Shown: piece by piece, positions 14,176 to 62,137 of the stretch
Numbering within the stretch: the stretch's first letter is position 1
Layout: every line of letters starts with the position of its first letter
From: an uncultured bacterium
GTDB taxonomy: Bacteria > Hinthialibacterota > Hinthialibacteria > OLB16
Length of the DNA stretch: 64,000 bases
Assembly: GCA_964422415.1 (NCBI GenBank)
Contig: CAYRBI010000003.1
Span: 10,607-74,606 of the forward strand
Reading direction: 5' to 3'
Position numbers and translations under genes: made by a program
Notes under the pieces: model-generated
Databases searched by the model: none
Seen by the model: only the letters and a program-made list of their open reading frames with translations
What the model was told of the DNA's origin: nothing

Positions 14176-14272
14176 GGATGTCAGATTGAGTTGACGCCAT
14201 TATATGTGTGGATACAATTTCATCAGTGTCGCTGCGGCGGGAAGAGAATCCCATCCCAGCGGTGGGAGATAC

Positions 14273-17200: not shown

Positions 17201-17650
17201 CATGATTTCACCCTCTGGGCACGGGTCAAGGTTCAGGAGGGGGGAGAACGTATCATCGCGGGGATTCCAGGAGTCTGGGAGTTCCTCGCACGCAGCGACA
17301 ATACTCTCGATTTTAATGCCAATGGAATCCCTGTGTTGAATGGCGCCGGTCCCACCGTACAGTCCACCCAATGGCAATCCCTGGCCTGTGTGTGGGATAA
17401 GACCAACAGTCTACTCCACATCTACCTGAGCGACGATGAGGATTGGTTGGAGGCATCCGCCTCCATTAGTGGAATCACACTGTCAGGATCTGGTCTTTTC
17501 CATGTGGGATCAACTCTGGGCGGGAGTGGTGGAGCCGGGTTGGTGGAGCAGGTACGCTACTTCGATTCCGCTCTGACCTCGGATGAGTTGCGGGGATTCT
17601 CGATCGATGAACCCATCGCTGGACAATCCCGGTGGGCACTCTATGAATAA
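14273..17650 (+). CDS. secreted subtilisin-like serine protease (peptidase S8) with PPC-type and C-terminal LamG/concanavalin-like domains
   Basis: Start set at the ATG at 14273, giving the signal peptide MRSATFRFILFFLAFTSISSAQ. The catalytic triad blocks are VAVLDEGIDLDHPDL (Asp), HGTAVAGLIAA (His) and GTSSSAPLASGLAALL (Ser). About 700 aa of beta-rich repeat domains follow downstream. Confidence 0.85.
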   Translation: MRSATFRFILFFLAFTSISSAQNEEVFFRCRGKKVFLRLAPSFMAIESSQGKEDSVNFLLEEEVVEPLYWSPTEGRYVFHYESREFVQRIASNKSVVSKTFPVYLPVDGEKPLWCFGEVIVRWEDETPEATIQSVFAGLGLEVKSQSLFDPTVFLTTCPENGERDAFEMAEILSSDPHVLWAEPNLYGGQSLSSSDPYRGNQTYLDIVHAGQAWAVTNGSPDVVVAVLDEGIDLDHPDLMDNIYENPKEIPGDSEDNDGNGYVDDLNGWDFFDNDNNPRPIGELPINAHGTAVAGLIAAVQGNNEGISGLAPGCKILPVRIFSGSTYGGNFKAAEAIRYAATLADVINCSWSGESTSNDLMSAIDFAVSSGRRGKGCVVVFASGNGGNPVSFPASYTWTVAVGETDENDLRNQGSNFGENLTLTAPVAAWTTDNSGAGGFDSPDLDYTNQFTGTSSSAPLASGLAALLFSANPDLSGAEAVMALLSGLDTPMTGITPSDLFGRSPELGCGRLNAGRSVLIADTSLDDRLEPNDCPGVAPTLTRGFYPWLFMDGSEDYYRLEPAAGTKLQCTVQYLSFLGDLNMMLREESGGVVATPTETLTENTRTLTLEYTPPSSGKYYLMLYPTTGEGFPYTLRVDVMGSDDTYEPNQTRSQAKIIAPGSGKTYQGLVLNDDDYYSVYTDEEQYLYALLSFDQSQGNLALQILDPQGNVVRTSDNNSYGEQVDPYQAASSDPLYIRVYSSSGETNREYSLHLAISSTPPIEGSGNDDSFEDNDTAATATAISTVFQPNLSLDDTGGETTDFYRFTVPGRKRLRVTTGWNGLPDIDLNLYPSGIMASTATEPVARSMFRLQDLESVSIPSIPTATEYWIEVSRYDSVGQSPYRLAVEVLDPLDTCVAFYRLCEGVIGTPFQGEAVRDWRGPLMSHHPSAYSGIGNWVEGPSPFSHPGSDGIALDCSSGGLYFAGNGARGELNLGDHDFTLWARVKVQEGGERIIAGIPGVWEFLARSDNTLDFNANGIPVLNGAGPTVQSTQWQSLACVWDKTNSLLHIYLSDDEDWLEASASISGITLSGSGLFHVGSTLGGSGGAGLVEQVRYFDSALTSDELRGFSIDEPIAGQSRWALYE

Positions 17651-21760: not shown

Positions 21761-24192
21761 TCATTCTCCGCCTTTTCGGTATCCAGCATTAAGCGTTCTC
21801 CATTCCATGCCATTTGAATGGCGCCATCGTAGCGGTTTGTCAGAATGGTGGTACCCACATCCTCAAACCGCTGGAGGGTCTCCAGGGCGGGATGTCCGAA
21901 GAGATTGTCTCCACACTGGATCACCGCAATGGCGGGGTGGATCTTCCGGAGAAATCCGGGACCGGAAGAGAAGCGGCTGCCATGATGGGCTACCTTGAGA
22001 ATATCGCAACTTAGGTTGGGGTACTCCTCAATGATCTCCCTCTCCACATCACCACAGATATCGCCGGGTAGGAGGACCTTTAAACCCGCCTGCTCCACCA
22101 AGAGCACCAGAGAGCGTTCGTTATGGGTTCCAAAGGGGTGCTGGATCTGTTCCATGCCTGGATACAGAACAGTCACAGTGGCATCGCTGATCCCTCCAAT
22201 CCGGTCCCCCGCCAACACCCGTCCGGTGGGTAACTGGCAAGACTTGAGACACCGCGCAAGGTCTTGGAAGGAAGGGCTCTCATTCGTATCTCCCGAGGCC
22301 AGAAGTGTTCCGATAGAGAAGGTATTCAAGACCTGCGGCAGTCCCCCGGCATGATCCGCCTCGGGATGGGTGAGCACGACCGCATCGAGATGACGGATAC
22401 CAAGCGAGAGAAGCGAATCTGTTAACGCACCCAGCTGGTTGGGTAAACCTTGTGTGGGAGGCCCAGTATCGACCAACAGTGTCTCGCCGCGTGGGAACTG
22501 GAGCAGGCAAGCATCCCCCTGGCCCACATCGAGAAAGTGGAGGCGGAATTCCTTGGACTCCGGAAGCAATGGCCACCAAGACAAACAGGCCAGCAGAAAG
22601 AGAGCGGTCACCCTCCGGCTGAGAAGCGGTGGATGAAACCATCCGGTGGGAAGAATCAATACGAGTCCCACCGACAATAATAGGGCAATGGTTACAAGAT
22701 CAGGAGACAAGACCACCTCGAAACCGAAGGACCAGGAGGAGACCCATGTCATTACATCCAAAAGAAGGCGTGACAGGAAATCCAGGGGAACACTCAAGAG
22801 TCCACTCAAACCAGGAAGAAAGGCCAACCCAAAGGCCGACAAAACTCCAAGGACTGTAATCACCTCGGCCACTGGAATCGCCACCAGGTTGGCGAAAACC
22901 GCTTTCCAGGCCACGGTATGAAAGAACCAGGCACTGATGGGCGCGACTGCGATCGTGGCCACCAGACTTACCCACAGTCCTTCACCTAACCGGGATACCG
23001 CACTCACCAGGGAATGTACAAACACACCAGGTTTGATCCATCTCTGGAGGAGAAGCTCGATCTGGAAGGAACGCACACAGTCTGGAAAGCCAGCCAGGAT
23101 CAATGCAGCAACAGTCACGAAGGAGAGCAGGAATCCGGGTTGATGTACCTCGGAGGGAAAGACCACCAGAATGATCAAGCCAGCTGCAGCCAGGAAGTTG
23201 AGGACATCGCCTGGACGGTCTAGGAAGAGCGCGAGCATGAACATGACCCCCATGAGAGTAGCGCGCAACACCGAGACCTGCGCCCCCACTAAGGCCAACA
23301 ACAGGAAAGCCAGCGGAATACCCAACAAGGCCCGCCAGCGCCGTGGTACACACAACAGATTCAGGAAAAGCGGGAGGGTGAACAACACAATAGTCACATT
23401 CAATCCGGAAACAGCGGTCAGATGGTAGAGGCCGGACTCCAACAAGTTGCGGCGGACATCTTCATCCAAATATCCCCGTTCTCCAGTGGTCATCGCCAGT
23501 GCAAGTCCGCCTGGTTGGCCGGGAAGCTGAGAGAGCATCCAGTCACGCACCTTGCCACGCCAGTAATCGCGGGCACGGATCAGCCTGGCCAGAAATGGAA
23601 GGCACTCAGGTTCATCCAGGCGGGTAGGGCCGCCCTTTGCCCTGAAAGTCCCCACCATGCCAGAGGACTGCATCCATCCATGGAGCGCACTCTGTCCCGG
23701 TGAGGAAAGTCCCGCGGATCGCCAGCGTCCTGTCACCTCCACCTGCTGCCCGGCTTCGCCAGCGGGTTGGGAGTGCGTAATGGAAACCACCTCGACTGGC
23801 CCAGACAGAGCCCCCCACTTTTTGCCATCCCACAGGCTGGGTTTTGTCACGCGAGCGCTCCAACGTCCCTCATCGGCCCGCTGGAACTGGGAGGCGAGAA
23901 CACCACGGACATAGGCGGGATCAGTGGCAGTCAGAGAAGCGCTTCGGTCCACTCTTCGCTGATAGGCCTGTTCGGCCAGAGTGTTGCGTAGGAACCCCAG
24001 CACAATCATCGACAACGCGAGGAGACGCAGGAGGTCTTGTTTGCCAGAGCACCGGCCTGATAAAACCGCGCCGAAGAGGACTGTTACAGATACCACAGCC
24101 ACGAGAAGAAGGGATTCCGGACCATGCAGCAGGTCAGCCAGGAGAAGACCGGCCACCCAGGCAAGGAACAGAACCAGCAGCGGCCTTCTCAT
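21748..24192 (-). CDS. comEC: DNA internalization-related competence protein ComEC/Rec2 (with C-terminal metallo-beta-lactamase domain)
   Basis: 814 aa comprising an N-terminal DUF4131-like region, a polytopic competence channel domain, and a C-terminal MBL fold (HFLDVGQGDACLLQFPRGETLLVDTG ... VLTHPEADHAGGL). Confidence 0.85.
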   Translation of the reverse strand: MRRPLLVLFLAWVAGLLLADLLHGPESLLLVAVVSVTVLFGAVLSGRCSGKQDLLRLLALSMIVLGFLRNTLAEQAYQRRVDRSASLTATDPAYVRGVLASQFQRADEGRWSARVTKPSLWDGKKWGALSGPVEVVSITHSQPAGEAGQQVEVTGRWRSAGLSSPGQSALHGWMQSSGMVGTFRAKGGPTRLDEPECLPFLARLIRARDYWRGKVRDWMLSQLPGQPGGLALAMTTGERGYLDEDVRRNLLESGLYHLTAVSGLNVTIVLFTLPLFLNLLCVPRRWRALLGIPLAFLLLALVGAQVSVLRATLMGVMFMLALFLDRPGDVLNFLAAAGLIILVVFPSEVHQPGFLLSFVTVAALILAGFPDCVRSFQIELLLQRWIKPGVFVHSLVSAVSRLGEGLWVSLVATIAVAPISAWFFHTVAWKAVFANLVAIPVAEVITVLGVLSAFGLAFLPGLSGLLSVPLDFLSRLLLDVMTWVSSWSFGFEVVLSPDLVTIALLLSVGLVLILPTGWFHPPLLSRRVTALFLLACLSWWPLLPESKEFRLHFLDVGQGDACLLQFPRGETLLVDTGPPTQGLPNQLGALTDSLLSLGIRHLDAVVLTHPEADHAGGLPQVLNTFSIGTLLASGDTNESPSFQDLARCLKSCQLPTGRVLAGDRIGGISDATVTVLYPGMEQIQHPFGTHNERSLVLLVEQAGLKVLLPGDICGDVEREIIEEYPNLSCDILKVAHHGSRFSSGPGFLRKIHPAIAVIQCGDNLFGHPALETLQRFEDVGTTILTNRYDGAIQMAWNGERLMLDTEKAENEWRP

Positions 24193-26213
24193 CCACGTGC
24201 CTGCGTGGCCTGAGCCTTTCTCGCTTCTTCATAACGCGGCTCAAACTGTTCGAGGTACTCGCCCTGTGCCTTGGCGCGCGCCGCCTCGGTGGTCCGTCCC
24301 AGATCATAGAGCAGACGGCTCCGATGGAGGTGGTAGTTGTATTTGACGGGATGCAATGCGATGGCCTGATCGATCTCTTGAAGCGCCTCCTCGCGTCTAT
24401 CCATGCGCGCAAGCACCTCGGCCAGGCTATCATGAAGAAAGCCCGCTGTGGGATTCCAATAGAGCGCGGTGCGCATGCTCCGCTCCGCATCAGGCAAGTT
24501 CCCTATATCCAACAACATCTCACCCAGATAGGAGTGGGCCTCGGCCAGTGGCGGCCAGACCAAAACCGCGCGTTCCAACAAGCGGCCAGTCCGGGGGACA
24601 TCCCGCTGCCTCTCAAAACTATCCGCCGCCTTCTCATAAAGGGCCTGCCCGGCCTCACGAAAAGCACAGGGAATCCCCACTGCTAGAAGGACAATGACGA
24701 CAAGACACGGACGGAGGTGCGAATTGTATGTATCTCCAGGCTGTAATTCTGTTGTTCGCCGGGGGTAAGGTAACGGCAGCTCATCATTCATACAATCTTT
24801 AATGCCGCCACCCCCGGTCCCTGGTGTTGGAGGTTCTTTCTTCATCATCCACCGGGGGCGGTGGCATTGCATCGTAAGCAGACGATTGAAAAACGTTGCC
24901 TTGCCCCCGGCTAACAACAGATTACGGAATGTACCATTGGAACGAGAAAGGATTCTCGTTCCAGCGATGCCGCAGCTGTCCGGCTCCCCCCCCATCCCCG
25001 CGATCACCCCCACAAAACCGGCCAGGTAGAGCATATCCTGATGAAATCCCAGCAATGTTGAAATGAAGAAACAGACCAGAGCGCTGGAGCACCAGACATC
25101 CAAGAGGGTACTCCCACGGAGTGGCAAATTCATTCGCCATACGCGGCGAAAGAACTGAAAAAGCACGATCAACAACAGTACCAATCCCACCGCCCCCATA
25201 TCCGCCATCGTCTCAATCAACAGATTGTGAGCATAGACGGTCTGATGAGTGGTGAGATCACGGAATCTGGGATAATTCGAGCCATACCCTCCGATACCGA
25301 AACCGAGGAGGGGGTTCTCGCGCGCCATACGCAGCCCTGCCTCCCAAAAGACCAGCCGTGCATGAACCGTCTCGGTCCTTGAGAGCATCTCGCGCCCGGT
25401 AGGAGACAGACACAGAACTGTAGCCCCCAGGAAGATGGCGAGGATGACTGCCCAGACCATTCGCATGCCACCTTTCCCCTTCCAAGCCAGCCAGACACAG
25501 ATACCCGCAAACAAGCCCACCAGCGAGGTTCGTGAACGGGTTCCCAATAGGATGTAGACCTGCTCGCACGCCGAAACCAGGCTACCCATGATAAAAACCC
25601 GGGCAGATCGAGAACGCCAGGCCCTCTCCAATAAGACCGGCGTGGCCAACAGGCTCAGACTCAGAAACACCCCCAGGTCGATGGGATTGCCAAAAGGGAA
25701 ATGAAAGCGGTTCTGCGAAGCTGCATGGAGGATGGCTTGCTTGTAGCCCTCATCGTACATCTCCCCCTGAAGGCTTTCCTCCATGACCTCCACCGGGACA
25801 GTCCAGATCGGGTTCACGACCGCGATTGCCGTGGCCAGCCCCCACAGGAGCAAGCAGAAAGCCCAAGGAAAACTGGGCACATGGCGGCACAACTCATGGG
25901 TGATCAGACCGAGTATCAAGGCACATCCCCAGGCCATAAGCAGACCGAAACTCCGGTCCCATTCCGGGGTACGGAGAACCTGAAAAAGAATCCAGGCCCC
26001 GAGCGCCAAGGGTGGCCAGGAGATCCGCCAGTTCACCGCAGCCACCGGGAGCACCCACAATCCCAGTACAAGGGTAGCGGTAAAGAACAGAAACCTTCCC
26101 CAGAAGAACCAGGCTCCCATGATCTCAATGAAGGGGAGGACACAGATAAGGACGAGCAGGAACGAAGCCTGGATCCAACGCTGAAAGGGAGTGCCAAGAG
26201 ATCCGATGGGCAT
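24189..26213 (-). CDS. O-antigen ligase (Wzy_C) family membrane protein fused to C-terminal TPR repeats
   Basis: About 12 TM helices with the Wzy_C block GFGIGGYGSNYPRFRDLTTHQTVYAHNLLIETMADMGAVG. The C-terminal roughly 170 aa are TPR-like. The stop overlaps the comEC start. Confidence 0.75.
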   Translation of the reverse strand: MPIGSLGTPFQRWIQASFLLVLICVLPFIEIMGAWFFWGRFLFFTATLVLGLWVLPVAAVNWRISWPPLALGAWILFQVLRTPEWDRSFGLLMAWGCALILGLITHELCRHVPSFPWAFCLLLWGLATAIAVVNPIWTVPVEVMEESLQGEMYDEGYKQAILHAASQNRFHFPFGNPIDLGVFLSLSLLATPVLLERAWRSRSARVFIMGSLVSACEQVYILLGTRSRTSLVGLFAGICVWLAWKGKGGMRMVWAVILAIFLGATVLCLSPTGREMLSRTETVHARLVFWEAGLRMARENPLLGFGIGGYGSNYPRFRDLTTHQTVYAHNLLIETMADMGAVGLVLLLIVLFQFFRRVWRMNLPLRGSTLLDVWCSSALVCFFISTLLGFHQDMLYLAGFVGVIAGMGGEPDSCGIAGTRILSRSNGTFRNLLLAGGKATFFNRLLTMQCHRPRWMMKKEPPTPGTGGGGIKDCMNDELPLPYPRRTTELQPGDTYNSHLRPCLVVIVLLAVGIPCAFREAGQALYEKAADSFERQRDVPRTGRLLERAVLVWPPLAEAHSYLGEMLLDIGNLPDAERSMRTALYWNPTAGFLHDSLAEVLARMDRREEALQEIDQAIALHPVKYNYHLHRSRLLYDLGRTTEAARAKAQGEYLEQFEPRYEEARKAQATQARG

Positions 26214-26226
26214 GGAGGAGATGGTT

Positions 26227-26961
26227 CTACCAGTCCTCTTTGAGATTTTTGACAGTCACCGCATCGGCGGATTCATAGGGTTCCAACCACTGGCCCGCCA
26301 CTTGATACCAGAGAGCCACCCCGAGAGGTCCCTCGGCGAAGGCCGTGGAGTCTTCATCGGTGATCTGCAGGGGAAAAGTTACGGGCTCTTCATCGACTTG
26401 AGCCCAGATCTTGGCGCGGACCTTGACCGGCGCCTGTCCATAAATCTGGATCCAGACCTTGTTGAACTGGTCCGCTTTCACCGCAACCGGACCACTCTGA
26501 AGGGCCGATGACCGCCAACGGCCCTCGCCGGAATGTTTCTCCAGCCAAGCCTTTCCCCCCTCGATCCGGAGCCGGTATCCCGAGTAGGTTTCCTCACCGG
26601 TACCAGCACGGACCACCACACAGACACCGGTACGGTGCAACGGCCAGCGCAGCATCTCGATCCGGAACTCATAGTCCTCGGACCGGAGCGGACCGGAGGC
26701 GATACCCGCCGAGGCCTCGTAATCAAACGTGTTCTTCCAGGTGACAGTACCGGGATGATTGAAGAGATCAAGTGGGTGCTCACCCGTCCAATGCTTCCAT
26801 TTATCCAGATTTCCACAACAGAAGGCATCATGAAAAAGTAAATCAGGAGAAGGCTTGCCTTTCGCGGGCGCCTCACACACAGCGGGAGAAAGCAGTGACA
26901 GACACAAGAACAGGAACGACAGACAGTGTTTTCTTAGCATAGAAATCCGTTTAAGTGACAC
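26227..26961 (-). CDS. secreted hypothetical protein (jelly-roll/DUF1080-like guess)
   Basis: 244 aa with the signal peptide MLRKHCLSFLFLCLSLLSPAVCEA and a beta-rich sequence. Family assignment is uncertain. Confidence 0.5.
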   Translation of the reverse strand: MSLKRISMLRKHCLSFLFLCLSLLSPAVCEAPAKGKPSPDLLFHDAFCCGNLDKWKHWTGEHPLDLFNHPGTVTWKNTFDYEASAGIASGPLRSEDYEFRIEMLRWPLHRTGVCVVVRAGTGEETYSGYRLRIEGGKAWLEKHSGEGRWRSSALQSGPVAVKADQFNKVWIQIYGQAPVKVRAKIWAQVDEEPVTFPLQITDEDSTAFAEGPLGVALWYQVAGQWLEPYESADAVTVKNLKEDW

Positions 26962-26992
26962 GGATTCATGTTAGGACCAAAGCCAGCACCTG

Positions 26993-29350
26993 TCAGCCAC
27001 AACGCCGTTCGCGCAAGCTCTTATCGAGTGGTTCACGTAGCACCTGACGGATCGCGCCGAGAGAAGCGATAGGCATCAACAGGAAGCCGGGAATGAGGGT
27101 CCGCAGAAAGTCCCCCGGTTCGGCAACCAGAGTCACGGCGAACCAAGCCTCAGAGACCTTACCATTCAAGAAAACCGCCGTTCCATACCCCACCGGAACC
27201 GCCAACAAGACCGCCAAGGCGCCCAAAACCAACACCTCGAGGATGATCGTCAAGGCCACGGTGGTGTCACTGAATCCCAGAATGCGCAACATCACATACT
27301 CACTTTTGCGCTTGAGGACCGTGAAGGAGACGCTACAGAAGATAAACAGGAGCGCGATGAACACGCTGAAGACCGCACCGATACGGATGATGCCGATCTT
27401 CTCGCCGGTGGTCTCCAGGACCTTGGAGACAATCTCGGACTTGAGGGTCACCTGCGCCACATTGCCTTGCGCCAGAAGCGCTTGACGGACCGCCTCATGA
27501 TCTCCCTCCAGCATCAGGAAGAAGGCCATGCACATATCTCCCATGCCGAGGATCTCCTGCGAGAGCGCGAGGGGCATATAAGCCTCGCCCGGTAAAGCGC
27601 CGGAGAGAATCCCGGCCACTACAACCGGAAACTCCTTGCCGAAATAGTTGATTGTGGCCGGATCGCCCACCTGAAGGCCACACTGACGCGCGAGGTTGCG
27701 TTCTAGAATGACAGAGCGGGTATCCCCCTCCTGCAGGGCACGTCCCTCCAGGATCTCGGGATTGCGGATACCTGATCCCGGGGGAACCCCACCGATGGCG
27801 ATGTTGCCCTTCCCTGCTGGCCCCACCAACCGCGCCGAGAACTTGCAGATGGGGACCGCCTTACGGACTCCCTCGATGGCCTCGTACTGAGCGCCATCCA
27901 CCACATCGACCGGTGCGAAGAGCTCCAGAATGGCATCCCAGGGATCGCCCTCGGTCATGCGGACAGCGGTGGTGGCATTGGAGGTAAGGTTGATGAAGAA
28001 GGAGACAGTCACGCCCAGTCCCATACCCACCGCCAGGATAGTCATTGCAGAGAGCGGTTTATTCCGTAACAGGTTCCGCGCGCCATATCGAAGCCAGACC
28101 TTCCCTGGCAGCCATGCCAGAAGCCGTCCGGCAATCCCCAGATGATCCCCGCCGCCGCGTTCGGTATCCCGCACTGCCTCCATGGGAGTGAGTCTGAGAA
28201 GCCATGTCAATGGCCATAGGGCCGCCAACAACAGCACCAAGGCCACTCCCAGCATTCCCCGTAGAATATGGACAACACCGAGCGAAACCTCCGGAACTGG
28301 GAAACCGATGGATCGGGCATAATTGGAGGCGAACAACGTCGCGGCGGTCCAAGCCACCACCAGCCCCACCAGGATGGCCCCCACCAGGATGCACAGAAGG
28401 GGAACCGAGAATGCCAGGCCAATCCGGACCCGGCCATACCCCATCGCCATCAAGGTTCCAATCTCCCGCCGTTCTTGGGCCACCCACTGGAAGATGAGAA
28501 AGAGGGTGACCAGGAAAGCAGTCAGGTCAAACACGATCACCATCGCCGGAAGGCAGACCCGGAATGCCCTCAGACTGAGTTCGAGAAAACGGCTGCCGAA
28601 CTGTTCGGAGGCGGGAATCACCTGGTCCAACAACAACGCCTTCTCCAGCTCAGATTGGATCGCGGTCTGAACATCCTCCTGATTGGCGCCCGGTTGCATC
28701 GTAACCAGGAGGCTATTGGAAAGGGGGAGCCCAACCCGGTCTTGGATCAATTTCGGGATGGCATAAAGAACTCCAAGTGAACCCTTGGAGGGGATGAAGA
28801 TGCGCGGGTTGGCGGGAGCCAGGAGGAACTCGGCGGACATTCCAATTCCAGCGACCTTCAGGTCATAAGTCTCATCGGCCAGGACCAGTTTCAATGGGTC
28901 CCCAGGATGGAGATGGTGAAAGAGAGCTAGGTTGCGGTCGATGACCACCGCTTCGGGGTGAGTGGGAGCGAGACCGTTGCCCTCCAGGATCTTGATCCGG
29001 TTGATGCGCCCGCCTGTCTCCGGATCGGAGGTGACCAGCATGGAGAACAAGGGGGGGCTGGAGGGGAACTGGAGCTGCCCCGGAAAGGCCAGGCGGTTCT
29101 CAGTTTCAGCGATTCCTGTCACCTTTGTGAGATCAGGCATACGCTGAAGGTCCTCGGGCGCGAAACGGAATTCCAGGCCGGCGAGATTCCCCTCGCTGAA
29201 GGCACGATCGCGTTCAGCCAACAGACTGTCGATAGCCGAGTAAACCCCCACATAAACGCCGAAACCCGCTGCCGCCACCAGGCTGAGGGAGAGGAGGCGG
29301 TAGCGCATTCTCCAGGCGCTACGCAGGACTGTTGTTGTCAGAAGACTCAT
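26993..29350 (-). CDS. ABC transporter permease with tandem FtsX-like domains (MacB/LolE/YbbP-type)
   Basis: Two copies of the four-TM FtsX architecture, each preceded by a large periplasmic loop. The start is set to the internal ATG (MSLLTTTVLRSAWRMRYRLL), which has AAGGTGG 10 nt upstream. The first ATG of the tracked ORF (29380) lacks an RBS. Confidence 0.8.
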   Translation of the reverse strand: MSLLTTTVLRSAWRMRYRLLSLSLVAAAGFGVYVGVYSAIDSLLAERDRAFSEGNLAGLEFRFAPEDLQRMPDLTKVTGIAETENRLAFPGQLQFPSSPPLFSMLVTSDPETGGRINRIKILEGNGLAPTHPEAVVIDRNLALFHHLHPGDPLKLVLADETYDLKVAGIGMSAEFLLAPANPRIFIPSKGSLGVLYAIPKLIQDRVGLPLSNSLLVTMQPGANQEDVQTAIQSELEKALLLDQVIPASEQFGSRFLELSLRAFRVCLPAMVIVFDLTAFLVTLFLIFQWVAQERREIGTLMAMGYGRVRIGLAFSVPLLCILVGAILVGLVVAWTAATLFASNYARSIGFPVPEVSLGVVHILRGMLGVALVLLLAALWPLTWLLRLTPMEAVRDTERGGGDHLGIAGRLLAWLPGKVWLRYGARNLLRNKPLSAMTILAVGMGLGVTVSFFINLTSNATTAVRMTEGDPWDAILELFAPVDVVDGAQYEAIEGVRKAVPICKFSARLVGPAGKGNIAIGGVPPGSGIRNPEILEGRALQEGDTRSVILERNLARQCGLQVGDPATINYFGKEFPVVVAGILSGALPGEAYMPLALSQEILGMGDMCMAFFLMLEGDHEAVRQALLAQGNVAQVTLKSEIVSKVLETTGEKIGIIRIGAVFSVFIALLFIFCSVSFTVLKRKSEYVMLRILGFSDTTVALTIILEVLVLGALAVLLAVPVGYGTAVFLNGKVSEAWFAVTLVAEPGDFLRTLIPGFLLMPIASLGAIRQVLREPLDKSLRERRCG

Positions 29351-29397
29351 CCCCGCGGGCCCACCTTCCGCATAGTCCACTGAGCTGGGGGTGCAGT

Positions 29398-29480
29398 AAT
29401 GGATTGCCGCTTTCGCGGGAATGTCGATCCACAGTGGACATCCCTCACACTGTCATTCCCGCGAAGGCGGGAATCCATAT
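29398..29480. mobile_element. MITE-like palindromic element, degenerate copy (family of three copies in this window)
   Basis: aatggattgccgctttcgcgggaatgtcg ... tgtcattcccgcgaaggcgggaatccatatg. The inverted arms match the 86-bp elements at 35778 and 62052. It sits in the 159-bp gap between the ABC ATPase and permease genes. Confidence 0.7.
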
Positions 29481-32374: not shown

Positions 32375-35300
32375 TCAGGAGATTGACGAAATAGGAGAGC
32401 CGGGCGGTGTGGTAAACAAATCCGCCTGGCGCTCGATAACCACAACGGCTCTTATCCCACGCAGGCTCTTGAGCCGGTCTAGAAGAACTGTGGAGGGGAC
32501 TACCCGTGGCGACCCAAGCCGCGAGATCAGACGCCGCACCCCTGACCGCTTGATGATCCCCGCGCCGTTCTCAAAAACAAGAGGAATTCCTCGTTCTCCA
32601 CCGGAAAACCATCGTAAAAAGAGAGAGAGTTGTTCGAGTACCTCGGCGGTGGAGTCCTCCAAGACCACCTTAATTTGACTCCAAGACTCACTGGCATTCC
32701 CTAACAGCGCGGGTGTTTCGCATTCCCGCAACAGATACTGGGGGAGGCCCTGCCCGGTGTAGGGGCGCGAACGGACTTCACAGAAGAGCGGCCAAGGCTC
32801 TTTGAGGTGCATCCGGTAGCCATCCAGCCGCGCGGCCTCTGGGATTGGATGAGGGAGAAGGCTGAGCACCTTGCCGGATTCATCCACCACCCGGTAGACA
32901 GTCTCTTGGTTGAAAAGAAGGAAGGTCACCCAAGGTGATTGGGACACACCACCCGGTTGCGGTTCTCCCGCGGTAGCGAACACATCCACCTCATGGACCC
33001 AGCCCATTTGAAGCCAATCCGGCTGCCTGGCAAGACCCCCCTCAGCAAACCATTCCTGGGGAAACCATTCCCGGAAAGGCTCAAGTGGATTCTGGATGAT
33101 TCCCAGGCGCAACAGGCTGAGTTCGAGGTGTTCCTCGTGATGCAGGCTTAAACTATCCGGACCAACAATGGCGGCCGTTGTTGAATGGGCTTGCCCGGGG
33201 CGGACAGGGAAGAGGGTTTGCTGCGCGGCCCCACCGCCCTGAGCACGCAAGGAGAGGTGCCGGGCGCGGGCCTCGGTAAGGAGTGCTCCGGTGTTATGGC
33301 CGAAAGGCTCGAAAACACCCAGACGGATCAGTTGTGAAAGGAGGTTCCAACTCAGCCGGTGTTCAGGCCAGGACTTGAGCCATTCCTCCCACGAGAGATC
33401 CGGTACCGTTGGGGGCGGCTGGAATAGATCCCGTAAACCACCCCCCTGCAAAGAGCTGGGATAGGATGCCTCCAGGTCCATGGAAATCTGCGGTCCCACC
33501 CCAAGGATATTCTGTGTCCCCAAACGAAGCTGCCCTGTAGATGGTGAGAAATCATAACGCCCACCCGGAACCGCGCGAGGCGGGTCGAGCCGCGTGCCGC
33601 GCGCTCTCAGCAGGCTGTAGAGTTCACGGCGATCCTCGGTTTCACCGGGATAGAGGTAAGACAGGATCGCAGTCATTGCCGCGGGATCCCGCGCAAAGGC
33701 ATCGGCCATGGCCAGCAGCTGCTCAGCCTTCCTTAAAAACTCAGGACGGGATGGAAGGGGGTTGGGATTACCCAGGAACTGGACCACCGTTTCCCTTGTG
33801 TTCCGGTCCCACACATGTTGATCCCGGCTGGAGACCGGGTCCGGTTGCGGCCCCCCCTCTTCCAGGGAGAGCCACAGATCCATCTCCTCCGCTGTCAGGC
33901 GAAGAGCAGCGGTTCCCACCTGGTGGATCTGCTCCCGGTAGAGGAGCCAACCTCCCGTTCCTTGAGTGAACCGTTCCAAAGCTGCGCCAACATCCCCACG
34001 GATCCTGGCATCGAGGCCACTCTCATCAGCGGATCTGGTCCAATCCTCCCACCAGGGAGGCACTCCTCCTTCGGAGCGGAGAGGGTGTTCTCTTTGGACT
34101 GCGATCAGACGCAGATTCTCCCGCTGGGTCCAGAAGGACCAATGCCAGGCTAAAGCGAGCAGGTCCGCCAGCTCACCAATGAATGTGGGCATGGCCGCAC
34201 AGATCCACCTCCAGAGGAGCGGACGGTAACCAGTGGAACCGGGAATGGTCAACAGGCGCAGGAGCGATGCTGAAAGGCCGAGAACCTCGATCTTGCCAGT
34301 GTCATCCGCATACCCCTGATCCCGGAAGACCTCGCCGCGATGCTTCTCGATCCAGGTGGTAATCGATTCACGGGATTCTTCGCGGCGGGGCAGGACCGGG
34401 ACAGTGTCCCGGTAAAACGGCGCGCAGGAGAGGGTCTGAGTATTCGATGCCAAGAGCCGCAGAACCAAGGTTCCCACGGTCAGGGCATCGATGGGGTCTG
34501 TGTCCAATTCTGGATACCCGGTTTTCGCGGGCGCGAACACCTGTTCGAGGTTGACCGCAGAGACAATCAGCGAGGCCGGAGCATCACTGGAGGTGGAGCC
34601 TCCCCCTTGATCCAGGAAAGATGGGAGTGGAGGAAGCTTATCCGGGGGATCACCGGGAAATTCCAGATCCTCCCAGTGGGCAAGCAAACGGTAGCCAGCA
34701 TGGACAAGATCCTCATGGTCATCTGGGGCGGGAGCCGCGAAGCCACATCTTCCTTTCCCCAACAGAGCATTGAGAGACGCGAGTACCTCCTGCTCCCATT
34801 GGTGAGGGCAATCCACCTCGACTGGAGCATGAAGAGAGTCTTGAACTCCAGGATGGAAGGAGATGCCTTCATGGTAGGGATCGACACGGGTCAGGCCGAG
34901 GAGATGCGCGAAGAGCGAGGAGGTGGTCCATTCAGCTGTAGGCCGGAGTGTCCCCGGTGGCAGCCCCAGCCGCTTACGAACATCCCACAGGAGAAGCCAC
35001 ACAGTGGGCCAGCGGGTCTGTTTGAGGTATTGGAATTCTTCGACCAGCCGCTCCTTGACCCCTTCCCGGCGGATATGACCGGTGGCGATGGCGGTTTCCT
35101 GACCTAGGGTCCAAAAGAAGGAGGCGGCATCGGTACCCCGTGGAACCGGGTAGACCGGGAAGGTCAAACCACTGTGTTGATAGGGATCGAAGGGTTTGGC
35201 GGTCAGCTTCTCGACACCACGGAAGGCAGGAGTAAGCCCTTGCAGGAGCCTTACCACCCGCTCCGCATGGGGAATACGCCCTGGCAGATCTCTTGAACTG

Positions 35301-36163
35301 GTGACATTTCCCTGCCCCGTAAGCCGTGCGGCACATCCCCAGAAACGGTCATGCTGTGTCCGGTAGGCGGCTTGTACACACGCGAGCGGCGGAATTGGAA
35401 GAGGCGACCGGGAGGGAGAGGTTGTGGCGGTTTCTATAATCCCACCCGTTCGTGAATCAAAACAACAGAGACCTACTTGATCATGTGGCCACTGTTCCAG
35501 AAATGTGGACATCCAAGCAAAGCGTTCTCTGTCTGCACGGTTGGTAGGAATCCGTTGAAGAGCTGATCCAGCCAATCCCGCCACCAGGAAAACTCCCTCA
35601 CAGAAATTCAAAAGAACCTCGGGATGAACACCCTTTTCCGCCGATAGATCCCAGGCTTGTTTGATCTTGAGCAGATTCCGGAAGCCGGCATGGTTGACCG
35701 CAAGCAGGGCGGCCCGCTCACAAGCACAAGCTGGAGTACCATTAGCAATCCGTTGAATAACTCTTTGTTCTTTTGGCACCATGGATTCCCGCCTTCGCGG
35801 GAATGACGATTTCCGAAGAATTTCGCTTATTCTGTCATTCCCGCGAAGGCGGGAATCCATGGTCACGTTCTCTTTCAACAGGCTGTTGGGGGACAGTAAG
35901 AGATCGAAGACATCGGGACTCCGGATCTCTGCTAGGCCTGAAGGGGGTGTAATGAGAACTGTCATCCCGGCCAGACCCAGCATGTGGTTTCTGGCGCAGG
36001 CCTCCAGGAAGCTTGGTCCTCCCTGGAGGGTACCCGTGTCCACCAACGCGGCTACACGGTAGCCCACCTCGGCGGCCGCCTGGACCAGCAGGTTGGGTGG
36101 CACAATCCCCCCCATACGGTCATGGGAGGACTGTAACAGGATAAGGGGCCCATGGTTTGGCAT
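32375..36163 (-). CDS. DNA polymerase III alpha (DnaE)-like protein with degenerate PHP and palm catalytic motifs (putative pseudo-polymerase)
   Basis: PHP-like N-terminus: [46 protein letters not shown] against the DnaE sequence [54 protein letters not shown] aligns with LLATNNTGYQNL. The palm block is [24 protein letters not shown] against [22 protein letters not shown]. The PDFDxDF site reads HAPVEVDCP, and FDFLGL reads IEVLGL. There are no stops across 3.8 kb. The start is set at the internal ATG at 36163, which has AAGGA 10 nt upstream. Confidence 0.55.
   Translation of the reverse strand: [1262 protein letters not shown]
35778..35863. mobile_element. 86-bp MITE-like palindromic element inserted in-frame in the DnaE-like ORF
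   Basis: accatggattcccgccttcgcgggaatgacgatttcc ... gtcattcccgcgaaggcgggaatccatggt. The 30-bp inverted arms are near-identical to the copy at 62052-62137. It translates (minus strand) to ...[28 protein letters not shown]... inside the PHP-like region. Confidence 0.75.
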
Positions 36164-36317
36164 ACACGGGAATCCTTGGGAAAAGGGAGCAAAATGACAA
36201 GACACCCCCATTCCCATATACTGCTCGAGCCGGTATAGTCACTTTCAACACCGGGCCCATGAGGATGCAGGATTTCCCCATGCGGCTCAAGACAGGCCGA
36301 TTTCCCCGGAGTAAAAA

Positions 36318-37307
36318 ATGGCAACCAAACGTACCAAAGACCAGAAAGGCACCTGGGTCACCTACCGTCCCGATATCAAGGTAATGGACTGCACGGTCCG
36401 GGATGGTGGCCTGATTAACAACCACAACTTCGAGGACTCTTTTGTCCGCGCGGTCTACCAAACATGTGTCGCCGCGGGTATCGACTACATGGAAATCGGC
36501 TACAAAGGAGCCCAGCGCCTCTACTCCCCCACCGAGCATGGCAAGTGGAAGCATTGCAGCGAAGACGACCTGCGCCGCATCATGGATGACAATCCGGCCA
36601 ATCTGAAAATTTCAGCCATGGCCGACGCGGACCGGTGTGATTACCACGTGGATATTCTCCCCAAAAAGGAGAGCGTCCTCGATATGATCCGCGTGGCCTG
36701 CTACATCAATCAGATCCCCACCGCGATCGACATGGTCAAAGATGCCACCGATAAGGGGTATGAAACCACAGTCAACATCATGGCGGTCTCGACAGTCCAT
36801 GAAAAAGACCTGCTGGAAGCCCTCGAGGTCCTGGCCGAAACCCCCGTCGGCTCGGTGTACATTGTGGACAGCAACGGCGCCCTTTATTCAGAGGAAATCC
36901 AGGATCTCACACGTCAATTCCGCCGGGCCTTGAATGGGACGGATAAACTAGTGGGGATCCACGCCCACAACAATCAACAATTAGCCTACGCCAACACCAT
37001 CGAGGCCATTGTTTGTGGGGCGAGTATGCTCGATGCAACCATCAACGGTATGGGACGTGGCGCGGGGAACTGTCCGCTCGAACTGCTCATCGGATTCCTG
37101 CACAATCCGAAATTTAAGCTGCGTCCCATCTTGGAGTGCATTCAAAACGTATTTCTTCCCATGCGGGACAAGATGGAGTGGGGGTATCAGCTGGCCTATA
37201 TGGTCACTGGCCAGCTCAACCAACACCCACGCTATGCCATTAAGGTACGTGAGAGTTCAACCCCGGATGATATTGTCGGTTTTTACGACCAAATGACAAA
37301 CGATTAA
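36318..37307 (+). CDS. HMGL-like (pyruvate carboxyltransferase domain) aldolase, 4-hydroxy-2-oxovalerate aldolase-like
   Basis: DCTVRDGGL resembles the DCTLRDGxQ metal-site motif. The C-terminal GIHAHNNQQLAYANTIEAIVCGASMLDATINGMGRGAGNCPLE matches the HMGL-like signature. Confidence 0.7.
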   Translation: MATKRTKDQKGTWVTYRPDIKVMDCTVRDGGLINNHNFEDSFVRAVYQTCVAAGIDYMEIGYKGAQRLYSPTEHGKWKHCSEDDLRRIMDDNPANLKISAMADADRCDYHVDILPKKESVLDMIRVACYINQIPTAIDMVKDATDKGYETTVNIMAVSTVHEKDLLEALEVLAETPVGSVYIVDSNGALYSEEIQDLTRQFRRALNGTDKLVGIHAHNNQQLAYANTIEAIVCGASMLDATINGMGRGAGNCPLELLIGFLHNPKFKLRPILECIQNVFLPMRDKMEWGYQLAYMVTGQLNQHPRYAIKVRESSTPDDIVGFYDQMTND

Positions 37308-37324: not shown

Positions 37325-38050
37325 GTGCTGATGAGAAATCTTAGTCTGGCTATGCTTGTTTCACTCTCCGCCGTGTCTTTCGCGCAAGGCGAGGGGGAAA
37401 AGGCCAAACCCATCCAGCAGGCTTGCACCTTTGAGAAAGAGGTGAAGGTGACCCTGCATTACCTGCTCTACCTGCCAGAAGATTATGACAAGGATCCGAA
37501 CAAGAAGTGGCCCATGATTTTGTTCCTGCATGGAGCGGGCGAGCGTGGAAATGATCTGGAAAAGGTCAAGAAGCATGGCCCACCGAAGATGATCGCCGAG
37601 GGGTCGAAATTTCCCTTCATCGTGGTTTCTCCGCAGTGTCCCGATGACCGGTGGTGGGATACCGATAGCCTCTTCCTTCTACTAGATGAGATCCAAGACA
37701 AGTACCGGGTCGACAAGAACCGGACCTATCTGACAGGGATAAGCATGGGCGGTTTCGGAAGTTGGGACATGGCCAGCAAACAGCCTGAGCGTTTCGCTGC
37801 AATCGCTCCCATCTGTGGCGGTGGTAATCCCTTCTTCGGACCGCGTTTGAAAACTGTGCCGATCTGGGTTTTTCATGGTGGCAAGGACAGTGTGGTCCCC
37901 TTGCAGAAATCACAGGAGATGGTGGATGCGGTCAAGAACGCCGGTGGCGATGTGAAGTTCACGGTCTACCCAGACGCCGATCATGACTCCTGGACTGAGA
38001 CCTACAACAACCCAGATCTTTACGAGTGGTTTTTGAAACACTCGCGGTGA
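37325..38050 (+). CDS. secreted alpha/beta-hydrolase (esterase / phospholipase-carboxylesterase family)
   Basis: Signal peptide MLMRNLSLAMLVSLSAVSFAQG. The nucleophile elbow is GISMGGFGS. LFLHGAGERG and a late HGGKDSVVP...DHDSW suggest a catalytic triad. Confidence 0.7.
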   Translation: MLMRNLSLAMLVSLSAVSFAQGEGEKAKPIQQACTFEKEVKVTLHYLLYLPEDYDKDPNKKWPMILFLHGAGERGNDLEKVKKHGPPKMIAEGSKFPFIVVSPQCPDDRWWDTDSLFLLLDEIQDKYRVDKNRTYLTGISMGGFGSWDMASKQPERFAAIAPICGGGNPFFGPRLKTVPIWVFHGGKDSVVPLQKSQEMVDAVKNAGGDVKFTVYPDADHDSWTETYNNPDLYEWFLKHSR

Positions 38051-38093
38051 TTTTTTTAAATAACCTCGCACTCTTGCTGGGTGCGAAGTCCTT

Positions 38094-38148
38094 CTCCCCC
38101 CCACCCCAACCCTCCCCCGCCAGGGGGGAGGGTTGGGGTGGGGGGGAG
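38094..38148. repeat. long C-rich/G-rich perfect hairpin (REP-like; possible terminator)
   Basis: ctcccccccaccccaaccctccccc-gcca-ggggggagggttggggtgggggggag, about 44 bp after the esterase stop and 44 bp before the MBOAT start. Related hairpins occur at 40764-40863. Confidence 0.7.
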
Positions 38149-38191
38149 GTTTACAGGATTTAAATAAGAGACCAATCCCCCTTCCTCCTCC

Positions 38192-39625
38192 ATGACCTTT
38201 AACTCTTTCACTTTTGTTTTCTTCTTTCTGATTGTCTACTCGCTCTACCTGATTCTCAACCATCGCGGGCAGAACCGGATGCTCCTGGTAGCGAGCATTA
38301 TCTTTTATGGCTGGTGGGACTGGCGCTTTCTCTCCCTGTTGTTTGTCTCGATCGGGATTGATTATGTATGCGGGTTGGGGATGGGATCGACAGAATCTCC
38401 CACGAAACGGCGCCTCTATCTCCTGATTGCAGTGTGCGGTGATCTAGGAATTCTATTCTTTTTCAAATACTTCAATTTTTTCCTGGAAACGGGGGCCGAG
38501 TTTCTCACCTTCCTGGGATTTCAGGCTCATCCCAAAACCCTAGGGATCATCCTCCCCATCGGGATTTCCTTTTACACCTTCCAGGCCATGAGCTACACCA
38601 TCGATGTCTACCGGCGGGAGACTCAACCGATCCGTAGTATCGCGGATTTCTGCTTGTACATCCTGTTCTTTCCCCAGCTGGTGGCTGGCCCCATCGAGCG
38701 TTCCACCAACCTGCTGCCCATGATCTTGAAGGAGCGGAGTTTAAATTGGCCGCAATTCAGGGCGGGGCTTTCGTTGATACTGATGGGGTATTTCAAGAAG
38801 ATCGTGGTGGCCGACAACCTGGCGCCAGTGGTGGATTCCGTCCTGGATTCTCCCGGCGTAATGCTTCTTTCTGGGGTAAATATCCTGATCGGGGTATATG
38901 CCTTCGCCTTTCAGATCTATGGTGATTTCGCGGGTTACAGCGATATCGCACGGGGAATGGCCAAGATGATGGGCTTTGAGCTGATGCTCAACTTCAACCG
39001 CCCGTATTTCGCCACCAATCCCTCGGATTTCTGGCGCCGTTGGCACATCAGCCTCTCCACCTGGCTGCGGGATTATCTCTACATTCCACTGGGCGGCAGC
39101 CGCCATGGAACCTTCGCCACCTACCGCAACCTCATGGTCACGATGGTGCTGGGGGGACTCTGGCATGGCGCGGCCATCCATTTCGTCCTGTGGGGTTTTT
39201 ACCATGGTCTCCTCTTGGTCCTCTACCGTCCGGTGGCCAATGGAATCACCCGTTTGACATCGGGATTGCCCACACTGTGGAGACAACCACTGACAGTTGT
39301 CTCGATGATCTTCATGTTCCACTTGAGCTGCTATGGCTGGCTGCTTTTCCGTGTGTCCACCTGGCGGCGGATTGGGATCATGACCAACCACCTCTTCACC
39401 CAATTCTCTCCAGGCACGATCCACCTGCCCTTCGTGGCTCCACTCCTGTACTTCGCGCTCCCACTCCTGCTCTATGAAATTATGCTGGAATCGAAAGCCC
39501 GGCCAGGTGGCCCACACCAGCCTATTCCAGTCTGGCTGAACAGTCTGATGCATGTGTACATGTTCACGATGATCCTGTGTCATGGAGTTTTGGAAGGTGC
39601 CCAGTTCATCTATTTTCAGTTTTGA
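38192..39625 (+). CDS. MBOAT-family membrane-bound O-acyltransferase (AlgI/DltB-like)
   Basis: 477 aa, polytopic. The conserved MBOAT block FWRRWHISLSTWLRDYLYIPLGGSRHG includes the catalytic His. Confidence 0.85.
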   Translation: MTFNSFTFVFFFLIVYSLYLILNHRGQNRMLLVASIIFYGWWDWRFLSLLFVSIGIDYVCGLGMGSTESPTKRRLYLLIAVCGDLGILFFFKYFNFFLETGAEFLTFLGFQAHPKTLGIILPIGISFYTFQAMSYTIDVYRRETQPIRSIADFCLYILFFPQLVAGPIERSTNLLPMILKERSLNWPQFRAGLSLILMGYFKKIVVADNLAPVVDSVLDSPGVMLLSGVNILIGVYAFAFQIYGDFAGYSDIARGMAKMMGFELMLNFNRPYFATNPSDFWRRWHISLSTWLRDYLYIPLGGSRHGTFATYRNLMVTMVLGGLWHGAAIHFVLWGFYHGLLLVLYRPVANGITRLTSGLPTLWRQPLTVVSMIFMFHLSCYGWLLFRVSTWRRIGIMTNHLFTQFSPGTIHLPFVAPLLYFALPLLLYEIMLESKARPGGPHQPIPVWLNSLMHVYMFTMILCHGVLEGAQFIYFQF

Positions 39626-40748
39626 ACTCATCCGCGAGCTGGCCAGCTCAATCCGTGCCCACTTCTCTCCACAGGACCGGTGGACCATTACATGGTGCAC
39701 TGTGTTCTTCCTTCCAGCCTTCGCGGTCTCGCTTCTGTCACCCATTGAGGTAGTCTCATCGAGATTCTTGAAATCCAATCCCATCCGTGTGGTCCATGAT
39801 CCCATCACGACCCCCAAGCTGGGGTTCTGCGAGGTGACTGAAGATGGCCTGGTCTACTACCCCACGGAGATCGAGGCCAACGCCTCGGTCCTTGTGATTG
39901 GGAACAGTCATTCAGACTGGATCATGTACCCACAGTGGATTGAACGGGAAGGACGTAACCAGAACCACCGGATCGCCGTCTACAGCGCGGCGCGTCCAGC
40001 CTGCTCCGCCATCGAAATGCTGGATACGCTCATTTATCTTCTAAAAACCACCTCACGGCGGTTCGATGCAATCCTCATCAAACCCGGCAATCCCTTCTTC
40101 GATGATATCGCCCATCCCTTCGAGAAGGAGAAATCAGACCCACTCATCGGGAGTGGCTTCTCGGTCATCTACACAGGGATGCCGTTAGCTGAATCTCCCT
40201 TCAGTTGGAGAGATCACCTCCAAACCGTCCTCCAGAAGCGGAGAACCGACCTGACCTTGATCGAACGCACGCACCGGATGAAACAAATGCACGACCAGAC
40301 TCTGCCTGGACCAGAGGTGGAACTTGTCACCAGCCTCCCCGCTGAGCTGCAGGCACTCATGGACCAGGAAGCAAACCGTCATGAACATGTTCTCACGGAG
40401 ATGGTCCGCATTTGCAAGGCGGCTGGAATCCCGCTGGCATTGATGACTACACCGGGAAGGCAATTCGATCTGACGGATCCAGAGGTCCTTGCGATGAAAT
40501 CCACCACCCCAGCCTTTTTTAATCGATATAGCCTTCTGGGCCTCAATCACCTGCTGACCGGGCGTTTCAATGCCTGCGTCCGGAAAGTGGTCTCCCAGGA
40601 GGGGAGCCAGATCATTGACACAGAGGCCTTCGTGGAGACCTTGCCGAAAGACGAGAACCATTACAGTGATTTTGTGCATCTCAACTTCAAAACCGAGGAG
40701 ATGCACGGAAAGTATGTATACCGCCGGCTGCGGGAGATGGGATTGTAG
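39582..40748 (+). CDS. membrane-anchored accessory protein of the MBOAT (DltD/AlgJ-like SGNH-type)
   Basis: 388 aa with one N-terminal TM helix. It is placed directly after, and overlapping, the MBOAT gene, as for dltB-dltD and algI-algJ pairs. LVIGNSHS resembles an SGNH block I. Start is uncertain because of the 44-nt overlap. Confidence 0.5.
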   Translation: MEFWKVPSSSIFSFELIRELASSIRAHFSPQDRWTITWCTVFFLPAFAVSLLSPIEVVSSRFLKSNPIRVVHDPITTPKLGFCEVTEDGLVYYPTEIEANASVLVIGNSHSDWIMYPQWIEREGRNQNHRIAVYSAARPACSAIEMLDTLIYLLKTTSRRFDAILIKPGNPFFDDIAHPFEKEKSDPLIGSGFSVIYTGMPLAESPFSWRDHLQTVLQKRRTDLTLIERTHRMKQMHDQTLPGPEVELVTSLPAELQALMDQEANRHEHVLTEMVRICKAAGIPLALMTTPGRQFDLTDPEVLAMKSTTPAFFNRYSLLGLNHLLTGRFNACVRKVVSQEGSQIIDTEAFVETLPKDENHYSDFVHLNFKTEEMHGKYVYRRLREMGL

Positions 40749-62008: not shown

Positions 62009-62051
62009 CAGGTCTTCAGCGGTCTATTGAAAAAAAAACAGTTGCGATGAG

Positions 62052-62137
62052 ACCATGGATTCCCGCTTTCGCGGGAATGACGATTTCCATTAAAAATCCC
62101 CTGATCCGTCATTCCCGCGAAAGCGGGAATCCATGGT
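62052..62137. mobile_element. 86-bp MITE-like palindromic element, intergenic copy
   Basis: accatggattcccgctttcgcgggaatgacgatttccattaaaaatcccctgatccgtcattcccgcgaaagcgggaatccatggt. It has the same length and terminal inverted repeats as the copy at 35778. It lies 44 bp after the FG-GAP gene stop. Confidence 0.8.

Follow-up and report, generated by a model that had tools for sequence, protein, structure and literature searches.

General Features of the DnaE-Like Gene

The window analysed here is a 64,000-nucleotide stretch of contig CAYRBI010000003.1 from an uncultured bacterium of the candidate phylum Hinthialibacterota (OLB16). Its minus strand carries a long gene, hereafter the DnaE-like gene, which encodes a full-length homologue or paralogue of the alpha subunit of DNA polymerase III (DnaE, C-family). 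The frame is free of stops over positions 32375-36217 and comprises 1280 codons when counted from its first ATG. The probable coding sequence (CDS) is shorter and occupies 32375-36163 (−), corresponding to 1262 aa and a stop codon. The start at 36163 is shared by the homologues, all of which begin with MPxxGPL, and is preceded by AAGGA 10 nt upstream; the database protein P0001 matches the 1262-aa product. The GC-content of the CDS is 58.8%. An earlier reading of the DNA from sequence only had placed a 1262-aa open reading frame (ORF) at 32375-36217. The frame is real, but the length fits the start at 36163, while the upstream ATG at 36217 gives 1280 aa.

Homology to DNA Polymerase III Alpha and Predicted Fold

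Curated models detect the relationship weakly and below their thresholds. The Pfam PHP model (PF02811) matches with E 1.3e-3 and 19.5 bits against a gathering score of 26.4, the Pfam DNA_pol3_alpha model (PF07733) with E 0.2 and 11.7 bits against 23.9, and the NCBIfam model TIGR00594 with 24.8 bits against a cutoff of 434. The phmmer match in the PDB is Mycobacterium tuberculosis DnaE1, with E 0.004. A custom hidden Markov model (HMM) built from 58 canonical DnaE proteins finds the window ORF with E 4.7e-25. The comparison of profiles is much stronger. Using hhalign, the profile of the family formed by the window protein and its orthologues was aligned with E. coli DnaE alone at a probability of 99.3% (E 1.5e-19, 1026 collinear columns) and with 59 canonical DnaE proteins at 100% (E 2.8e-81, 1056 collinear columns). 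The identity to canonical DnaE is about 14-19%.

The AlphaFold2 (AF2) model calculated from a 96-sequence alignment, which comprised the family, inactivated relatives and canonical DnaE, has a mean predicted local distance difference test score (pLDDT) of 83.9 and a predicted template modelling score (pTM) of 0.86. In a Foldseek comparison with the PDB, this model matches M. tuberculosis DnaE1 best (E 1.6e-29), then Pol III alpha of Thermus and of E. coli, and after these PolC; the top entries are 7pu7, 4iqj, 2hpi and 5fku, and the DnaE matches range from E 1e-29 to 1e-21. The domain order of DnaE is preserved: PHP, palm, thumb, fingers, clamp-binding domain with a helix-hairpin-helix (HhH) motif, OB and C-terminal domain. 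The profile alignment, the model and the structural matches bear out the sequence-only reading of the ORF as a full-length DnaE homologue. In a neighbour-joining tree of the family, inactivated relatives and live DnaE proteins, the distances are saturated (about 2.9) and the origin of the family is not readable.

Palm, Fingers and PHP Active-Site Positions

To assess the active-site residues, 92 alignment columns with a conservation of 88% or more among 58 live DnaE proteins were chosen, and the family residues were read at each of them. MAFFT and hhalign agree on the positions of D401, D403, D405, K553, D555 (E. coli numbering) and RRxxGKK and differ in the register of the GS motif. Both methods and the model place the PDFDVDF strand of E. 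coli at the beta-strand PVEVDCP (aa 447-453; 34805-34825, −), in agreement with the earlier equation of PDFDxDF with HAPVEVDCP. D401 is replaced by P447, a position that varies in the family (P/S/W/R and others). D403 corresponds to E449, which is Glu in 8 of 11 members and Gln, Gly or Asp in one each, and D405 to D451, with Asp or Glu in all 11. The strand GLVKFDFLG is represented by the beta-strand GTLVLRLLA (aa 564-572; 34448-34474, −) in MAFFT, hhalign and the model. Here K553 is replaced by V567 (V/G/N/C in the family) and D555 by R569 (R in five members, E in two, N in two, Q in one). The alignment by hhalign with E. coli DnaE alone had gapped the KxD strand, giving an apparent deletion; this placement was replaced by strand 564-572, on which MAFFT and hhalign with many DnaE sequences agree, and D555 is lost under either placement.

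The sequence-only reading had assigned FDFLGL to IEVLGL (aa 625-630; 34274-34291, −). This assignment was not upheld, as IEVLGL is helical in the model and aligns by hhalign with the E. coli fingers segment DDKKSFDMLQ (SFDMLQ, about residues 592-597); the true counterpart is GTLVLRLLA. On condition that its alignment was right, the same reading held all three catalytic aspartates to be replaced, which is correct for D401 and D555, whereas D403 has given way mostly to a conservative Glu (8 of 11 members) and is not ablated.

Other catalytic motifs have changed as well. The position of the nucleotidyltransferase GS motif GRGS(A) reads LRPTAEW (aa 406-412; 34928-34948, −), in which GRGS corresponds to LRP[TS] by hhalign and to AEW by MAFFT; the glycine is gone in both registers (P/L/V by hhalign). 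R362 is retained as the invariant R407, and W412 is also invariant. In the fingers core (33752-33940, −; MAFFT and hhalign), YQEQ has become YREQ (33929-33940) and LRRAMGKK has become WLSLEE (within 33854-33874), with W-LS-E across the family. FxGYGFNKSH is aligned by MAFFT with FLGNPNPLP (33752-33778), while FNKSH is unaligned in hhalign, and RPGP has become R-x-H-P in the family.

The N-terminal PHP-like domain (about aa 1-330; 35174-36163, −), recognised by hhalign and by the weak Pfam match, has degenerate ligands. The HxH motif is replaced by L-L-Q in LLQSSHD (36119-36139), the segment that had already been matched with HVHSxYS and is so aligned by hhalign; the family pattern is L/I-x-Q/R/F. 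The DH motif is D-T in AALVDTGT (36029-36052), with D-[TAQRK] in the family, and DxH is A-A-Y in ACVQAAYR (35360-35383). With the reference set of nine metal ligands (HHDHEH[C/H]DH), D42, the Asp of DH, is the sole survivor among those that can be aligned.

Judged from these alignments, both ancestral active sites, palm and PHP, are degenerate. Considered together with the established enzymology of the C-family, the sequence suggests that two-metal-ion nucleotidyl transfer would be impossible and that the protein would hence be a pseudo-enzyme.

Retained Modules and Conservation of the Palm

Features of DnaE other than the catalytic ones are kept. The internal beta-clamp-binding motif is QQTLF (aa 981-985; 33209-33223, −), which hhalign aligns exactly with QADMF 920-924 of E. 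coli; at the motif level, Q[QHAS]T[LF]F occurs in all 11 members. A second clamp-binding-like motif, QADLF (aa 1246-1250; 32414-32428, −), lies at the C-terminus, and 10 of 11 members have Qxx[LMI]F within their last 5-17 residues. The HhH GxG motif LGVGPQI (aa 887-893; 33485-33505, −) corresponds in hhalign to IKGVGEG of E. coli. An OB-fold-like beta-barrel at about aa 1050-1150 (32714-33016, −) is found by hhalign and in the model and is collinear with the part of DnaE that runs from the OB domain into the beginning of the C-terminal domain.

Conservation in the family peaks in two segments: aa 351-425 of the palm, where column identity is about 80%, and aa 626-675, where the fingers begin. 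Since the palm segment is the most conserved, the old cleft probably still binds something.

Selection, Distribution and Genomic Context

The gene is under purifying selection, as the sequence-only reading had supposed from its open frame. For the window gene and its orthologue at locus L003, the ratio of nonsynonymous to synonymous substitution rates (dN/dS) is 0.138 (dS 1.73), and for the pair L008 and L010 it is 0.18. There are 142 invariant residues over 13 sequences of 33-71% identity. Intact full-length ORFs are present at seven loci, namely the window and six others with 34-71% identity.

The window protein has a 48-aa insert missing from seven aligned homologues, within which lies a palindromic element resembling a miniature inverted-repeat transposable element (MITE) or a repetitive extragenic palindromic (REP) sequence. 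This 84 bp perfect palindrome (35779-35862) stands in frame in a loop of the PHP domain, and the stretch that bears it, aa 90-143, is predicted to be disordered in the AF2 model (pLDDT < 50). The palindrome (CCATGGATTCCCGCCTTCGCGGGAATGAC...GTCATTCCCGCGAAGGCGGGAATCCATGG) is present in three copies in the window, the others being at about 29395-29480 and about 62050-62135; the copy inside the CDS encodes ...DSRLRGNDR...SFPRRRES.... Exact matches to the 29-nt palindrome arm were found in at least 120 metagenome contigs with a GC-content of 0.37-0.73, and the unrelated Wzy_C protein P0009 shows 80% identity to the palindrome-encoded peptide. The orthologue of Candidatus (Ca.) Hinthialibacteria bacterium OLB16 (L009, LMZT01000138.1) is split across two frames at about 12829-12943, in a variable linker past the internal clamp motif; this may be a true frameshift or an assembly error of a 2016-era metagenome-assembled genome (MAG).

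Seven full-length representatives of the family, together with fragments, were found in 1.84 billion representative proteins, and they are set apart from the next matches by a sharp E-value gap, from below 1e-30 to 1e-29. The family occurs in 6 of 185,579 species genomes, including that of OLB16 and MAGs labelled Omnitrophota. OLB16, once placed in Omnitrophota, now belongs to the phylum Ca. Hinthialibacterota, the members of which are described as free-living heterotrophs (PMC9324843). As found, the family is confined to this candidate phylum. The orthologues are annotated by the Prokaryotic Genome Annotation Pipeline as ‘PHP domain-containing protein’, nothing more. No viral relatives were found in IMG/VR; among defence and phage families, PADLOC gave no match and PHROGs merely phrog_405 with E 1.1e-3.

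The neighbours in the window are unrelated and include an ABC/FtsX transporter, a CN-hydrolase, a DUF134 protein, a Nitro_FeMo-Co-domain protein, an HMGL-like protein, an esterase and an MBOAT protein. The genes around the family in seven further contexts are unrelated as well. Pfam recognises the neighbouring proteins without difficulty (E 1e-12 to 1e-47), and the extreme divergence is thus peculiar to the DnaE-like gene. No imuA, imuB, dnaE2, lexA, dnaN or other replisome genes were found nearby in eight contexts, two of which are on short contigs; for the window, the gene annotation confirms the earlier observation that neither imuA/imuB nor replication genes are adjacent. The only recurring neighbour is the divergent HMGL-like gene of about 330 aa directly upstream of the DnaE-like gene (36318-37307, +). 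By synteny, it recurs at L003 (4998-5999), L012 (6708-7700), L013 (349-1341) and L014 (5951-6949), in members with only about 40% identity, and a functional link is not evident. The AT skew is strong in parts of the window, with values of +0.19 to +0.25 at 22001-28000, where the genes lie on the minus strand, and of −0.19 at 38001-40000. Its sign tracks gene orientation, which suggests purine-rich coding strands.

Several candidates for a canonical dnaE accompanying the family were considered and rejected. The window gene at 14204-17650 (+) encodes a subtilase of 1148 aa that has PPC and LamG-like domains, and that at 52664-55810 (−) a 1048-aa protein with a SpoIID domain. The canonical ‘Omnitrophota’ DnaE proteins P0266 and P0268 and the high-GC P0309 and P0313 come from other assemblies, and the names of the top live DnaE matches point to unrelated phyla. 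DnaE was also absent from the at least 120 unrelated metagenome contigs recovered with the MITE sequence.

Proposed Function and Alternative Explanations

Taken together, we consider it fairly probable that the product of the gene is a non-catalytic DnaE paralogue, a pseudo-enzyme that keeps the shape of a polymerase and attaches to the beta sliding clamp as well as to DNA. Its active sites would have been lost, and the scaffold would have been retained for the remaining functions, most plausibly clamp and DNA binding. The retention of the clamp motifs, the HhH and the OB fold points to such a role, in which the internal Qx[TS]LF and C-terminal QxxLF motifs, together with the HhH and the OB fold, would provide clamp and DNA docking. 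At primer termini, the protein might fill the clefts of the clamp or span them; alternatively, it might assist the true replicase in a structural or regulatory capacity. Its role would then parallel those of ImuB and the inactive Pol epsilon polymerase module. Replication of the chromosome is attributed to a separate, canonical dnaE, the presence of which is assumed because every surveyed bacterium has a canonical DnaE1 or DnaE3 (PMC12926913).

Several points weigh against a non-catalytic, clamp-docking paralogue. The most conserved block is the former active-site region, which fits a structural core or a new activity alike. E449 and D/E451, two residues apart on the DxD strand, could still bind metal. 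The evidence for catalytic inactivity consists of sequence and that for clamp binding of motif matches. The AF2 model calculated from eight family sequences only was poor (pLDDT 53.9, pTM 0.37), and the 96-sequence alignment behind the better model is mostly canonical DnaE, so that this model is not fully independent evidence. Finally, a canonical dnaE was not found in the approximately 260 kb of Hinthialibacterota sequence formed by the window and the loci, a span uninformative for multi-Mb genomes.

The conservation of the palm leads to the first alternative, which is that the protein is a repurposed enzyme with a new catalytic or ligand-binding activity in the palm cleft, the clamp motifs merely localising it. 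Conservation specific to the family is strongest at aa 336-429 of the palm and includes invariant polar residues foreign to canonical DnaE (R342, D345, Q355, E356, K381, Q382, W412 and H420), as this explanation would predict. A structural core or a protein-protein interface would, however, give the same pattern of conservation. Moreover, no catalytic motif of another family was recognised in Pfam, NCBIfam, PADLOC or PHROGs, and the PHP ligands are gone. A new activity of this kind is therefore regarded as unlikely.

The clamp motifs can also be understood if the protein is a hub subunit of a translesion or mutasome-like assembly, a functional analogue of ImuB within the C-family, recruited with a separate error-prone polymerase after damage. 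A dead polymerase with clamp motifs is the defining logic of ImuB (PMC12926913), and the window protein has a weak NCBIfam match to the error-prone DnaE2 model (E 0.006). The family is, however, no nearer to DnaE2 than to DnaE1, an SOS box was not identified, and in most of the eight contexts the surrounding 8-10 kb are free of imuA, imuB, dnaE2, lexA and Y-family genes. On this evidence, a mutasome role is rated as distinctly improbable.

The third alternative takes the protein as a DNA polymerase that is active in spite of its extreme divergence and might be the replicase of the phylum, with a site remodelled around E449, D/E451 and other acidic residues invariant in the family, which would stand in for the canonical D401/D403/D555 triad. 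E449-V-D451 leaves two carboxylates on the DxD strand, R362 persists as the invariant R407, YQEQ is largely retained as YREQ, conservation is highest at aa 351-425 of the palm, and the clamp motifs, HhH and OB are all present, as in a working polymerase; no canonical dnaE was seen in the approximately 260 kb of Hinthialibacterota sequence. On the other hand, D401, D555, K553, the glycine of the GS motif, the finger Arg/Lys residues and FNKSH are replaced, mostly by residues variable in the family, at positions that are 88-100% conserved in the 58 live DnaE proteins, and even position 449 is Q, G or D in one member each. The rest of the proteome is ordinary and offers no genome-wide cause for the divergence, the OLB16 copy is frameshifted, and canonical DnaE1 or DnaE3 is present in every surveyed bacterium (PMC12926913). 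Activity as a polymerase thus appears very unlikely.

Less probable still is that Hinthialibacterota are devoid of a canonical DnaE, the DnaE-like protein being their sole C-family polymerase. Either a re-invented active site, devoid of the universal D-D-D triad, the GS motif and the finger arginines, would then replicate a multi-megabase genome, or a polymerase of another family would do so, with the DnaE shell as a scaffold of the replisome. Should a canonical dnaE indeed be missing beside the family, the gene would be of much greater note.

That the gene is a pseudogene in decay or an artefact of the assembly, to which the mobile palindromic element within the CDS and the frameshift in the OLB16 orthologue might point, is ruled out for practical purposes by the selection and conservation data. 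The element preserves the reading frame and occupies a variable loop. The 3.8-kb ORF is uninterrupted both in the window and at six loci of 34-71% identity, dN/dS is 0.14-0.18 and 142 residues are invariant.

Comparison with Known Systems

Surveys of bacterial polymerases published in 2014 and 2026 divide the C-family into PolC and DnaE1-3 only (PMC3919608; PMC12926913). They report inactivated PHP domains and inactive members of the Y- and X-families and list no C-family group with a dead polymerase; both cover sequenced bacterial genomes, the 2026 survey complete genomes only (PMC3919608; PMC12926913), and would thus miss this uncultivated phylum. Full-text literature searches gave no other description of an inactive C-family polymerase group. 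The surveys are in keeping with the sequence-only reading, in which no described family of this kind was known, and the DnaE-like gene would be the first conserved pseudo-polymerase located for the C-family.

The closest counterpart in architecture is DnaE1, as represented by E. coli DnaE, Taq Pol III alpha and M. tuberculosis DnaE1. The domain order and fold are the same over approximately 1050 aligned columns, and the window protein has the internal clamp motif at the same position, as well as the HhH, OB and C-terminal domain. In contrast to DnaE1, it lacks D401, D555, K553, the glycine of the GS motif, RRxxGKK, FNKSH and the PHP ligands. DnaE2 (ImuC) resembles the window protein in being an accessory paralogue of DnaE whose PHP site is degenerate; unlike it, DnaE2 keeps the catalytic residues of the polymerase, is missing the C-terminal domain and is encoded in LexA-regulated cassettes.

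Non-catalytic polymerase scaffolds are known from other families. Bacterial PolX with an inactivated polymerase site provides one precedent (PMC12926913). It belongs to another polymerase family, and its PHP nuclease is still active, whereas the PHP domain of the window protein is degenerate too. Eukaryotic Pol epsilon, also of a different polymerase family, retains an inactive C-terminal polymerase module as a non-catalytic scaffold. ImuB, the inactive Y-family member of the ImuA-ImuB-DnaE2 mutasome, is likewise without catalytic carboxylates, carries a QxxLF-type clamp motif and is under selection. The functional logic common to both would be that of a clamp-bound hub. The fold of ImuB is, however, unrelated (Y-family as opposed to C-family), and the window gene is without the imuA/dnaE2 operon context.

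Other inactivated DnaE-like proteins were also encountered. The next-best matches of the family profile (E 1e-29 to 1e-12) are 27 such proteins from uncultivated bacteria, which are also without RPGP. In 23 of them, which measure about 1000-1100 aa, the fingers core is deleted; the other four have the full length. The proteins of this wider set (e.g., P0041, and P0040 of Ca. Sumerlaeota) resemble the window protein in having lost DxD, KxD, GRGS and YQEQ and in having kept the internal xLF. They score 237-537 bits on NCBIfam, much nearer canonical DnaE than the window protein, to which their identity is about 14-20%, and the HxH/DH/xH site of the PHP domain looks intact in several. The identifiers of the wider set are P0038-P0050, P0052, P0054, P0055, P0058, P0065, P0066, P0069, P0077, P0092, P0095, P0100, P0104, P0123, P0125, P0139 and P0157. 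Annotation pipelines label these proteins ‘PHP domain-containing protein’ (Ca. Sumerlaeota) or ‘DNA polymerase III alpha’, and the latter label could mislead the inference of marker genes and replication systems in MAGs. P0041 (locus L004) is encoded by a solitary gene adjoining a ribosomal-protein cluster.

The full-length P0066 and P0100 have P-[HD]-G-[WY] right behind the degenerate DxD strand, as in the Hinthialibacterota family. Their C-terminal tail, L..L..L.G[IV]..., resembles that of the family, and the tail of P0100 terminates with a clamp-like motif, QxxLLF. These two proteins may be the nearest outgroup of the Hinthialibacterota family, and inactivated DnaE-like proteins may represent a wider, undescribed phenomenon in uncultivated bacteria.

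The DnaE-like gene offers a natural experiment on which surfaces of DnaE, namely the contacts with the clamp, DNA, tau and epsilon, matter apart from catalysis. Elsewhere, dead polymerase paralogues are key organisers, as are ImuB in bacterial mutagenesis and the Pol epsilon module in the eukaryotic replisome, while the C-family has hitherto been regarded as uniformly catalytic. A conserved DnaE that bears clamp motifs and is predicted to be devoid of an active site, together with the wider inactivated set, suggests that a class of accessory proteins of the replisome or of repair has been missing from this picture.

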